NCBI GenBank assembly: GCA_020852705.1
Contig: JADZAP010000030.1
Location: 3,991 to 67,990, forward strand
DNA length: 64,000 nucleotides
Origin: Ignavibacteria bacterium
GTDB taxonomy: Bacteria; Bacteroidota; Ignavibacteria; Tepidaquicellales; OLB5
Direction: 5' to 3'
A program made the position numbers and the translations under genes. Shown in pieces: positions 35,006-35,484 of the stretch (positions within the stretch are counted from its first letter, which is position 1; each line of letters starts with the position of its first letter). The notes under the pieces are model-generated. The model was not told the DNA's origin, did not search any database, and saw only the letters and a program-made list of their open reading frames with translations.

Positions 35006-35031
35006 AAGCAGGTTAATTACCTGCTTTTTTT
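35006..35031 (+). terminator. rho-independent terminator of the gnd-zwf-pgl operon
   Basis: An 8-bp stem aagcaggt/acctgctt with a 5-nt loop is followed by a run of 7 T. Confidence 0.75.
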
Positions 35032-35069
35032 GTACACCCGGAAGGAGTCGAACCCTCAACCTTCTGATC
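35028..35069. repeat. 42-bp direct repeat, copy A (3' half of tRNA-Arg(ACG) plus 5 nt of 3' flank)
   Basis: ttttgtacacccggaaggagtcgaaccctcaaccttctgatc is identical at all 42 positions to 35406-35447. Confidence 0.95.
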
Positions 35070-35133
35070 TCCGCCTTCGGCGGATAAACTCCGTCAGATG
35101 CTCCCTGCCTGCCGAAGGCAGGTATCCGGTTGC
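35033..35133 (-). other. tRNA-like structure / rearranged second tRNA-Arg copy (101 nt)
   Basis: Minus strand reads GCAACCG-GATA-[CCTGCC-TTCG-GGCAGG]-CAGG-GAGC-A-TCTGA-CGGAGTTTA[TCCGCC-GAA-GGCGGA]GA-TCAGA-AGGTT-GAGGG-TTCGACT-CCTTC-CGGGTGT-A. The acceptor stem pairs at 6 of 7 positions, the anticodon stem and T arm are intact, the D arm is replaced by a UUCG hairpin, and the anticodon loop is 26 nt. Confidence 0.55.
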
Positions 35134-35405
35134 GCTAATCGATAATTTTTTTTAGAAACTCCCGTCCTTCACCGGATTTTAAATAAAGCTCGCGTTTTCT
35201 AGCAGCCTCAAAAGTATCAAACTCTTCTATTTGAACTAATTTCCATGGAATATAAGCTTTCGTTGACTTGGTTTTACCGGCATTATGTTCCGTCAATCGC
35301 CGTTTGATGTTATCCGTAACTCCTTTATACAACCTTCCATCAATTGTACTTTTAATGACATAAGTATAAAATTTTTTCAAACGTTGTATGGATTTTCTGT
35401 GATTG
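35070..35405 (-). mobile_element. candidate 336-bp mini-cassette (GIY-YIG ORF plus structured 3' region) inserted in the anticodon loop of tRNA-Arg(ACG)
   Basis: It is bounded by the perfect 42-bp repeats and carries a single nuclease ORF. No integrase or transposase is present. See findings. Confidence 0.5.
35135..35380 (-). CDS. stand-alone GIY-YIG nuclease-domain protein (81 aa, YhbQ/COG2827-like)
   Basis: (M)KKFYTYVIKSTIDGRLYKGVTDNIKRRLTEHNAGKTKSTKAYIPWKLVQIEEFDTFEAARKRELYLKSGEGREFLKKIID carries the GIY (YTYVI), YIG (LYKGVT), Arg (RRLTEH) and Glu (RE) elements. I placed the start at the TTG at 35380, because the track's upstream extension (35381-35437) is tRNA sequence. Confidence 0.8.
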   Translation of the reverse strand: MKKFYTYVIKSTIDGRLYKGVTDNIKRRLTEHNAGKTKSTKAYIPWKLVQIEEFDTFEAARKRELYLKSGEGREFLKKIID

Positions 35406-35447
35406 TTTTGTACACCCGGAAGGAGTCGAACCCTCAACCTTCTGATC
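35406..35447. repeat. 42-bp direct repeat, copy B (inside the intact tRNA-Arg(ACG))
   Basis: Identical to 35028-35069. It spans tRNA positions 37-73 plus the flank caaaa. Confidence 0.95.
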
Positions 35448-35484
35448 CGTAGTCAGACGCTCTATCCAGTTAAGCTACGGGTGC
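35411..35484 (-). tRNA. tRNA-Arg (anticodon ACG), 74 nt, no encoded CCA
   Basis: Folded by hand as GCACCCG-TA-GCTT-AACTGGATA-GAGC-G-TCTGA-CTACGGA-TCAGA-AGGTT-GAGGG-TTCGACT-CCTTC-CGGGTGT-A. The 1:72 pair is G-U. Confidence 0.9.

Follow-up and report, generated by a model that had tools for sequence, protein, structure and literature searches.

A minimal GIY-YIG nuclease cassette nested in a tRNA-Arg gene of an Ignavibacteria bacterium, with Ssn-like features

Ssn enzymes are monomeric single-domain GIY-YIG proteins of about 94 amino acids (aa). Their substrate is single-stranded DNA, in which they recognize a GC-rich hairpin repeat (NTS, or Ssn-related motif [SRM]) and cleave a few nucleotides to its 5' side (Chenal et al. 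2025, PMC11893778). They are inactive on double-stranded DNA or RNA, and their genes are typically flanked by these repeats; in addition, the passages of that paper cited here report that SsnA of Neisseria meningitidis modulates natural transformation (PMC11893778). In the current study, we analyzed a 64,000-nucleotide stretch of DNA (hereafter, the window) from an Ignavibacteria bacterium (GenBank assembly GCA_020852705.1, contig JADZAP010000030.1, positions 3,991 to 67,990 of the forward strand), in which an 81-codon GIY-YIG open reading frame (ORF) lies between an intact tRNA-Arg(ACG) gene and a disabled second copy of that gene, designated tRNA*. We put at roughly 55% the probability that this locus is a minimal selfish, Ssn-like hairpin-plus-nuclease cassette that is nested in a tRNA gene and spreads or amplifies through tRNA homology. 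Such a cassette would have three parts, namely the 81-aa nuclease, its probable cognate GC-rich hairpins, and the disabled host tRNA copy that holds those hairpins in its loops.

Several other systems share parts of this design. SegB of phages T4 and T6 is a GIY-YIG homing endonuclease encoded in a tRNA cluster and, according to the passages cited here, it cuts within tRNA genes (PMC2330249, PMC13096335) and drives recombination-dependent tandem amplification of the segB-plus-tRNA segment (PMC13096335). The Ssn authors themselves draw an analogy to REP/BIME-RAYT systems (PMC11893778). Both these and the IS200/IS605 elements resemble our locus in that a small nuclease gene is flanked by hairpins recognized in single-stranded DNA, but they differ from it in their HUH (Y1) fold, their covalent intermediates, and the lack of tRNA nesting. 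SegB is a larger protein of the I-TevI/Seg lineage, with a C-terminal DNA-binding region, and acts on double-stranded DNA. In the mitochondrial atp6 of Allomyces, a free-standing GIY-YIG ORF brings a replacement 3' end for its target gene, and fungal mitochondrial DNA also has mobile GC-rich double-hairpin elements. As at our locus, a small GIY-YIG ORF then sits in an essential gene, part of which is duplicated so that function is kept, and GC-rich hairpins stand out in an AT-rich genome; these organellar cases differ in that protein-coding genes are involved, the GIY-YIG lineage is another one, and there is no tRNA scaffold.

On the minus strand, tRNA-Arg(ACG) is followed by a 30-nt spacer and the ORF, after which come 65 nt that include two GC-rich hairpins and then a second, perfect copy of the 3' half of the tRNA (Table 1). 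ARAGORN, Rfam, Pfam, and repeat alignment place the tRNA, ORF, spacer, and repeats exactly where the initial annotation had put them from the bare sequence. The two 42-bp copies are identical and are spaced 378 bp apart, and an exact repeat of this length within 64 kb is beyond chance. When extended beyond 42 bp, the direct repeat reaches 48 nt at 96% identity, and its CAAAA end represents the first 5 nt of the spacer. The duplication is also found outside this assembly: Logan contigs from two independent runs, SRR24928191 and SRR9827768 (L081 and L082, corresponding to window positions 34918-35057), match the window exactly. Both contigs end at 35057, that is, k-1 = 30 nt into the repeat that starts at 35028, and on the assumption that the Logan assembly graph was built with k=31, this breakpoint indicates that the duplication is genuine and not an assembly artefact. 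Short-read assemblies fragment at such repeat-bearing loci, as these two contigs illustrate. We note that gene callers also read a 100-aa ORF at 35135-35437 in the window.

Table 1. Features of the tRNA-nested GIY-YIG locus (window coordinates)
Feature	Position	Strand	Basis or remark
Promoter-like site (TTGGTA, 16 nt, TAAAAT)	35530..35557	minus	consensus scan; ~45 nt upstream of tRNA
Intact tRNA-Arg(ACG)	35411..35484	minus	ARAGORN; Rfam RF00005, 63.2 bits, full length
Proximal copy of the 42-bp repeat, within the intact tRNA	35406..35447	minus	
Spacer between tRNA-Arg(ACG) and ORF, 30 nt (CAAAACAATCACAGAAAATCCATACAACGT)	35381..35410	minus	sequence; too short for a promoter
GIY-YIG nuclease gene, 81 codons, single domain, TTG start, TAG stop	35135..35380	minus	Pfam PF01541
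tRNA*, disabled tRNA-Arg(ACG) copy, positions 8-73, without the 5' acceptor strand	35033..35137	minus	alignment
GC-rich D-loop hairpin of tRNA* (CCTGCCTTCGGCAGGCAGG), after GGATA (tRNA position 21/22)	35104..35122	minus	
Anticodon-loop insert of tRNA* (GGAGTTTA plus hairpin TCCGCCGAAGGCGGA), replacing the anticodon	35070..35092	minus	
Distal copy of the 42-bp perfect direct repeat (tRNA positions 37-73 plus CAAAA)	35028..35069	minus	
Hairpin terminator (AAGCAGGTAATTAACCTGCTT), shared with the convergent pgl gene and closing the unit	35006..35026		terminator scan

The consensus scan detected no promoter-like site between the tRNA and the ORF, and the terminator scan revealed a single terminator after the whole unit, behind tRNA*. 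Given one upstream promoter-like site, none before the ORF, and one terminator, tRNA-ORF-tRNA* is likely to be a transcription unit, probably driven as a whole by the promoter-like site upstream of the tRNA. The idea that the nuclease gene exploits tRNA transcription for its own expression, one of those put forward when the locus was initially annotated, is therefore likely.

The 65-nt stretch after the ORF had been described as hairpin-rich and RNA-like. It does contain hairpins, but our alignment identifies it as the 5' part (positions 8-32) of a second tRNA-Arg(ACG) copy with two inserts, i.e., a D-loop hairpin of 19 nt and an anticodon-loop insert of 23 nt including its hairpin. Direct alignment to the intact tRNA shows that the TAG stop of the ORF represents U8-A9-G10 of tRNA* and that GATCAGA (positions 37-43) comes after the anticodon-loop insert. 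The inner boundary of the repeats does lie in the anticodon loop, as previously observed, but this is the site of a hairpin insert and need not be where a crossover took place. Neither the anticodon nor the 5' acceptor strand is present in tRNA*, and ARAGORN gives no tRNA call for it. The Rfam tRNA model spans 35133-35033 end to end at only 16.8 bits, below the gathering score of 29, so tRNA* does not look like a functional tRNA. We rejected the Rfam placement of GCAACCG as the acceptor stem of tRNA*, since the closest ORF homologs, whose stop is U8-A9-G10 of an intact tRNA, show the TAG stop to be positions 8-10.

Both hairpins are locally unique. The pattern CCTGCC..GGCAGG has a single match in the 64-kb window, the D-loop hairpin, and the anticodon-loop hairpin motif likewise occurs once, with 0 matches expected in each case. 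The D-loop hairpin motif (consensus CCTGCCTGCCGGCAGGCAGG) recurs in dozens of homologous loci, which come from several phyla and have it at an identical tRNA position, and homologous anticodon-loop inserts (..AGTCTATCCCGC..GCGGGAGATCAG) were found in ORF-less tRNA remnants of three relatives (L087, L089, and L129). In addition, tRNA* is a chimera: at positions 13 and 27, it agrees with the relatives and differs from the intact tRNA of the window, whereas it agrees with the latter at positions 50, 51, 64, and 66; these four are T-stem variants borne by the distal 42-bp repeat.

The 81-aa protein matches PF01541 with an E value of 7.8e-16, and the whole of it is the catalytic domain, without a DNA-binding domain. 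The residues Y7, Y18-x-G20, R28, E31-H32-N33, E64, and K68 are all present and are 88-100% conserved across the family. AlphaFold2 run with an alignment gave a confident GIY-YIG fold, with a predicted local distance difference test score (pLDDT) of 94.7, and was preferred to the single-sequence model (pLDDT 53), which we discarded. The best Foldseek matches of this model were UPF0213 and the Slx1 nuclease domain (template modeling score 0.70-0.73, root mean square deviation 2.1 A), those to I-TevI (E 0.4, 16-18% identity) and UvrC were weak, and a PDB sequence search agreed with the UPF0213/Slx1 affinity. An Ssn-type relative is an Azospirillum GIY-YIG protein (38% identity, pairwise E 4e-13, hhalign probability 98%) whose gene sits between sufB and sufC and is flanked by four canonical SRMs; it came from a tblastn search against plasmids, in which all matches were distant relatives. 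The protein thus belongs to the Slx1/UPF0213/Ssn lineage and not to the I-TevI lineage. Among its homologs, the ratio of nonsynonymous to synonymous divergence (dN/dS) is 0.04-0.29; the ORF evolves under purifying selection.

Further features are shared with Ssn systems. In both cases, the protein measures 80-100 aa, has one GIY-YIG domain with its catalytic residues intact, lacks a DNA-binding domain, and is encoded by a gene accompanied by GC-rich hairpins with conserved flanks. Moreover, in the Ignavibacteria lineage, the insert in the anticodon loop (AGTCTA-TCCCGC..GCGGGA-GATCAG) is similar in stem and flanks to the NTS (CGTCAT-TCCCGCG..GCGGGA-ATCYRG). The published degenerate SRM pattern nevertheless had 0 matches in the window, including the anticodon-loop insert, and 0 in 80 homologous loci, whereas it had 4 in the Azospirillum control, so we do not file the window hairpins as SRMs. 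Since the similarity to UPF0213 is also nearly as high as that to the Ssn type, we call the system Ssn-like and claim no membership of the Ssn family (cd10448). The arrangement also differs, in that the cassette hairpins sit in the loops of a duplicated tRNA and are neither dispersed over the genome nor set in inverted pairs about the gene. Furthermore, tRNA sequence runs directly into the ORF at one end or at both, and units can be arrayed in tandem. Nowhere in the Ssn paper is tRNA mentioned (PMC11893778). The initial annotation knew of no described element with this architecture, and this stands for the tRNA nesting, although the pairing of such a protein with hairpins was described in 2025.

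With the aim of placing the locus in its family, we scanned one genome per species and obtained 80 loci (L001-L080) that encode relatives at 39-66% identity. A co-oriented tRNA abuts the ORF in 73 of them, and several of the 7 exceptions carry hairpin-interrupted tRNA copies that ARAGORN does not call. From typical tRNA gene densities, we estimate that a co-oriented tRNA would lie within 160 nt of a random gene in well under 1% of cases. The abutting tRNAs are mostly tRNA-Arg (CCT, TCG, ACG, and TCT), and those for Met, Glu, Asp, Asn, Pro, Ala, Thr, Ser, Tyr, Gly, His, and Lys also occur. The opposite flank of the ORF nearly always bears a second, incomplete version of this local tRNA, into which a GC-rich hairpin is inserted; the homologs are thus almost always associated with a tRNA and a duplicated piece of it, as the initial annotation proposed to check. 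In the majority form, a hairpin-bearing 5' tRNA piece precedes the ORF, which is followed by the intact tRNA and often has its stop inside it. The minority form, to which the window belongs, has the intact tRNA first and the interrupted copy after the ORF. The hosts fall into about eight phyla (Bacteroidota, Ignavibacteriota, Chlorobiota, Omnitrophota, Elusimicrobiota, Planctomycetota, Marinimicrobia, and many Patescibacteria), and the ORF tree has clades in which phyla are intermixed. At E <= 1e-10, the family profile has matches in 5,903 clusters (50% identity).

The positions and sequences of the hairpins are also recurrent. Hairpins are inserted after tRNA position 21/22 or 26 (immediately after GGATA or GAATA), in the anticodon loop, or in the T-loop at 55/56 (after GGTTC), and TA precedes 49 of 68 hairpins. 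The hairpin type tracks the protein clade, with at least four types: type 1 is CCTGCCTGCCGGCAGGCAGG; type 2 is CCCGCCCG..CGGGCGGG; type 3 is TCCGCC..GGCGGA plus CCCGCC..GGCGGG, found in tRNA-Glu of Patescibacteria; and type 4 is TCCCGA..TCGGGA. When the partial copy was compared with the intact tRNA in 46 loci, identity was 98.8% for the part lying outward of the hairpin and 92.3% for the part facing the ORF (Fisher p = 7e-14, a difference that trimming of the local alignments may inflate somewhat). Together with the chimeric tRNA*, this asymmetry marks the hairpin as the boundary between host-type and cassette-type tRNA sequence.

Units can also be multiplied. Tandem arrays of 2-6 near-identical units of 310-360 bp have the intact tRNA at the end or start of the array; a metagenome-assembled genome (MAG) of Pedobacter terrae has 5 units, a Bacteroidales MAG at least 6, and a complete Pedobacter genome 2. 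Carriers that can be cultured include Pedobacter sp. KLB.chiD, with 2 units, P. terrae, and a Flavobacterium having the tRNA-Arg(TCG) form. Hairpin-bearing tRNA copies without an ORF also cluster about the intact tRNA. In L018 (1200-1373), for example, two tandem 87-nt repeats, each made up of the 5' part of tRNA-Arg(TCG) with a D-loop hairpin and a short tail, lie ahead of the intact tRNA, with the ORF on the far side of a terminator, so hairpin-bearing tRNA pieces can amplify with no ORF between them. The Elusimicrobia locus L053 (1309-2160) has two cassettes, one at tRNA-Arg(TCT) and another whose GIY-YIG ORF, the second in this locus, lies between tRNA-His and, downstream, a hairpin-interrupted copy of that tRNA.

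In many loci (L016-type, L093/L097 at 1437-1446, and many of L005-L061), the ORF stop represents U8-A9-G10 of the downstream intact tRNA, and the last codons of the ORF are encoded by its acceptor stem. RNase P cleavage of the precursor would then yield a non-stop mRNA, perhaps as a built-in brake on nuclease expression. Some annotations at these loci are affected by the nesting. The 94-nt tRNA-Cys(GCA) called by ARAGORN in L003 (1740-1833) is really a tRNA-Arg(TCG) copy with a 19-nt hairpin in its D-loop, which shows that cassettes can create spurious tRNA annotations. Many database relatives (P0241, P0243, and P0265 among them; many of 100-146 aa) have 20-60 extra N-terminal residues or two GIY-YIG stretches, probably because gene callers read through the tRNA-like leader or through array units.

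We also looked for the family in viral contigs. Distant small GIY-YIG homologs occur there, 13 of 15 have no tRNA neighbor, and the scan of these contigs gave no evidence of a phage-borne tRNA-nested form. The best matches (L101-L108) lie within a few kb of contig ends and may be prophage predictions that stop at a cassette-bearing tRNA attachment site rather than phage-borne copies.

The same tRNA locus could be followed in relatives whose pgl is 54-58% identical to that of the window. These keep gnd-zwf-pgl beside an opposite-strand tRNA-Arg(ACG), and none has the ORF. One of them (L083) is a clean site with only promoter, tRNA, and terminator. In L087 (3990-4100, minus strand), a hairpin-bearing 5' tRNA piece and a short AT-rich spacer precede the intact tRNA, whereas in L089 (3230-3480, minus strand) the intact tRNA and its terminator are followed by two successive 3' partial copies with inserts, the first of which has a copy of the terminator after it. 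Scanning metagenomes with the tRNA 3' half alone yielded three useful loci from closer relatives, whose tRNA 3' half is identical to that of the window; two of them (L129 and L130) have an ORF-less remnant, at about 3150-3330 on the minus strand in L129, and the third (L131) is clean. An exact metagenome search for the repeat-plus-terminator junction, covering either allele of the same strain, gave 0 hits. The ORF-less partial copies in L087, L089, and L129 look like scars of earlier cassettes.

Flanking sequences point in the same direction. An upstream block (ttcaattgaataact.ataaaat...ggtaaatt), within which the promoter-like site falls, is conserved before tRNA-Arg(ACG) in L083, L087, L089, and L129, and the window terminator is homologous to the one directly after the single tRNA-Arg(ACG) in L089 and L087. 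Given that flanks around a single tRNA are homologous in relatives, whose sites are clean or ORF-less, the cassette looks like an insertion into or behind the tRNA gene that kept one working tRNA. An insertion that restores the tRNA, with empty sites to be found elsewhere, is also what the initial annotation had suggested, and the clean sites in L083 and L131 are in line with it, albeit in distant relatives. Part of the spacer after the window tRNA (35381-35396, CAAAACAATCACAG) resembles the 3' flank in L083 (3773-3787, minus strand, CAAAAACAACAATCC); the cassette may thus carry the tRNA 3' flank of an earlier host, in a match too short for certainty. A second arginine tRNA, tRNA-Arg(CCG), lies 8 kb away in the window (27295-27367, minus strand), with no GIY-YIG ORF seen nearby, and L131 has a similar pairing of ACG and CCG tRNA-Arg genes.

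We postulate that such a cassette would spread as follows. The tRNA promoter would transcribe the whole unit, and the nuclease, like Ssn enzymes, would bind its hairpin when the DNA is single-stranded, e.g., during replication, heavy tRNA transcription, or DNA uptake. A nick a few nucleotides from the hairpin would produce a broken end within tRNA sequence that is identical to the neighboring intact tRNA and nearly so to the tRNA genes of other bacteria. Host homologous recombination could then copy the cassette into naive tRNA genes (by Campbell-type single crossover or gap repair), swap which flanking copy is intact, and expand units into tandem arrays. Either a crossover between a unit circle and a tRNA gene in the uninterrupted segment beside the hairpin, or repair of the hairpin-directed nick from a misaligned tRNA copy, would give both configurations as well as arrays. 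Only products with one intact tRNA would survive, which would explain why the ORF always lies between an intact tRNA and a hairpin-bearing partial copy. Phage SegB, also encoded beside tRNA genes, sets an experimental precedent, since it cuts inside such genes and brings about recombination-dependent tandem amplification of the nuclease-plus-tRNA segment (PMC13096335), in parallel to the arrays of L011, L015, L052, and L058.

Several observations weigh against a selfish cassette of this kind. The nearest relatives of the window organism are distant, with pgl at 58% identity or less, and give no date for the insertion. The duplication has no fixed boundaries and in some loci takes in the tRNA terminator (L020 and L089), a pattern more easily reconciled with unequal recombination than with precise insertion; such variability favors recombination over precise transposition chemistry. 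With the published SRM pattern unmatched, the proposed link between hairpin and nuclease is one of analogy and co-occurrence only, catalysis by this clade is predicted from its relatives, and the similarity of the protein to UPF0213 structures (cd10456-type, 34-37% identity) is almost as high as to the Ssn-type protein (38%). An identical protein, P0054, was found in one unchanged context in each of 24 contigs read, out of the 125 collection blocks for which the index lists it, with no sign of recent movement, and the Pedobacter orthologs look vertically inherited, at a synonymous divergence (dS) of 0.4-0.8. The P0054 and Pedobacter patterns are equally expected for a domesticated gene and for an active mobile element.

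The locus could instead be a classical free-standing homing system, in which the protein cuts the double-stranded, uninterrupted tRNA-Arg gene, repair copies the cassette, and the hairpins merely destroy the site. Presence and absence at a syntenic tRNA site, with decay remnants, is what a homing cycle would give, site-disrupting insertions would be expected at recurrent tRNA positions, and GIY-YIG homing ORFs that carry a duplicated gene end are found in fungal mitochondria. SegB offers a GIY-YIG homing enzyme that cuts within tRNA genes. The passages cited above describe no conserved hairpins or disabled tRNA copies for SegB, however, and the window protein, whose match to I-TevI is weak, has no counterpart of the C-terminal DNA-binding domain of the I-TevI/Seg enzymes. 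In only 81 aa, it is nearest to Slx1/UPF0213/Ssn in fold and sequence, and a homolog of it is of the SRM-flanked Ssn type, all of which makes the conserved hairpins more probable recognition sites than the tRNA-Arg gene that the initial annotation had considered as target. Furthermore, an intact, cleavable tRNA is always beside the nuclease gene, so a tRNA-targeting nuclease would cut its own locus, and a mere site disruptor would not need a hairpin sequence conserved across phyla. The pattern of presence and absence at a conserved target (clean in L083 and L131, ORF-less in L087, L089, and L129) is shared with I-TevI/Seg systems, if only across distant relatives. Taken together, we regard homing as unlikely, although it deserves consideration ahead of the alternatives that follow. 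The SegB cleavage motif RAWTSGAAC, as given in the cited passages, is the complement of the T-loop coding sequence GTTCSAWTY (PMC13096335), and the T-loop hairpins of our family (L011, L015, L039, L041, and L047) are inserted right after GGTTC.

Ranking behind homing, and likewise improbable, is a domesticated host function, i.e., a resident nuclease whose hairpins serve recombination, DNA uptake, or tRNA copy number, inherited mostly vertically and with the duplication as a by-product. Strong purifying selection, the apparent orthologous persistence in Pedobacter and Chitinophagaceae, and the unchanged P0054 context in many samples would all fit, as would the role of SsnA in natural transformation and the view, in the SegB passages cited, that SegB-driven tRNA amplification is adaptive for phages. 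A host function would account less well for the sporadic occurrence of the ORF among Ignavibacteria having the same tRNA locus, for the frequent ORF-less remnants, and for the many tRNA species used and the mixing of phyla in the ORF tree. The hairpin motif also occurs at one locus in the 64-kb window, as opposed to the hundreds of dispersed repeats in Neisseria. More doubtful still is a device acting at the RNA level, in which hairpin-extended tRNA-like RNAs would be processing or stability signals, or decoys that titrate tRNA-targeting toxins or the nuclease itself. The inserts do lie in the three cloverleaf loops, which tolerate extra helices and in which such helices would disrupt the D-loop/T-loop elbow that RNase P relies on; the ORF lacks a separate promoter; where its stop is U8-A9-G10 of the downstream tRNA, tRNA 5' processing would sever the mRNA; and tRNA-Arg is a known toxin target, e.g., of colicin D. 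On the other hand, the 116-nt region has a fold z score of -1.8 and is not unusually stable as RNA, an Rfam scan of the locus at a permissive threshold found no family other than tRNA, the hairpins are conserved in sequence beyond pairing alone, many partial copies are too truncated for a tRNA-like fold, and the characterized relative SsnA does not bind RNA.

The duplicated tRNA 3' end recalls the classic footprint of integrase-driven islands, which likewise are bordered by an intact tRNA on one side and by a directly repeated 3' part of it on the other, with the tRNA restored, and the last remnant of a decayed island was one of the initial readings of the cassette. We consider this very improbable, and equally so the neutral decay of a plain tandem tRNA duplication that has a passenger ORF. 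No recombinase, of the tyrosine or serine type, was found between the window repeats, where the GIY-YIG gene is the only ORF, or in about 80 related loci; the cargo of 336 bp in the window, against the kilobases of an island, is uniform at ~330 bp throughout, in about 70 loci free of any recombinase; and purifying selection acts on the ORF. Most relatives have the 5' rather than the 3' part of the tRNA duplicated, the repeat boundaries coincide with hairpin inserts, and both the sequence and the position of the hairpins are conserved. The asymmetric identity about the hairpin is not what a simple duplication would show after neutral decay. A group I intron or a split tRNA was dropped, given the intact tRNA and the lack of an intron core, as was a type III toxin-antitoxin system, for which there was no supporting evidence.

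Full-text literature searches, with most subscription journals outside their coverage, retrieved no description of the tRNA-nested architecture. Known relatives exist for its components, namely Ssn enzymes with their SRM repeats, SegB with tRNA amplification, and the restoration of tRNA genes by integrating islands. There is a substantial chance that the cassette represents a distinct class of minimal mobile element. More tentatively, and with the balance somewhat against it, we propose an unrecognized class of autonomous mobile element of ~330 bp that is present in at least 8 phyla, is made up of no more than an 80-aa Slx1/Ssn-lineage nuclease and a cognate hairpin, has neither integrase nor transposase, and uses the nearly universally conserved tRNA genes as its landing pad. 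In this scenario, host homologous recombination, recruited by a hairpin-directed nick in single-stranded DNA, would copy or amplify the unit and each time rebuild one intact tRNA.

If the selfish-cassette reading is correct, few self-propagating DNA elements with a protein gene of their own would be smaller, and their route of mobility would need no recombinase but a hairpin-specific nick and the conservation of tRNA genes. The thousands of clusters and at least four hairpin types would constitute natural enzyme-hairpin pairs and, as such, potential tools for cutting single-stranded DNA. The finding would also explain the genes for a "GIY-YIG nuclease family protein" glued to tRNAs in Bacteroidota, Ignavibacteriota, and candidate phyla, as well as odd or over-long tRNA calls such as the 94-nt one in L003. 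tRNA loci would stand out as recurrent duplication sites, which is relevant to tRNA gene counting and, because contigs break at the repeat, to assembly. By analogy with phage SegB, nuclease-driven arrays of tRNA and tRNA-like sequences may form an adaptive reservoir against tRNA-targeting toxins. For the Ssn nucleases themselves, the tRNA-nested cassette would represent a second and very different genomic lifestyle.

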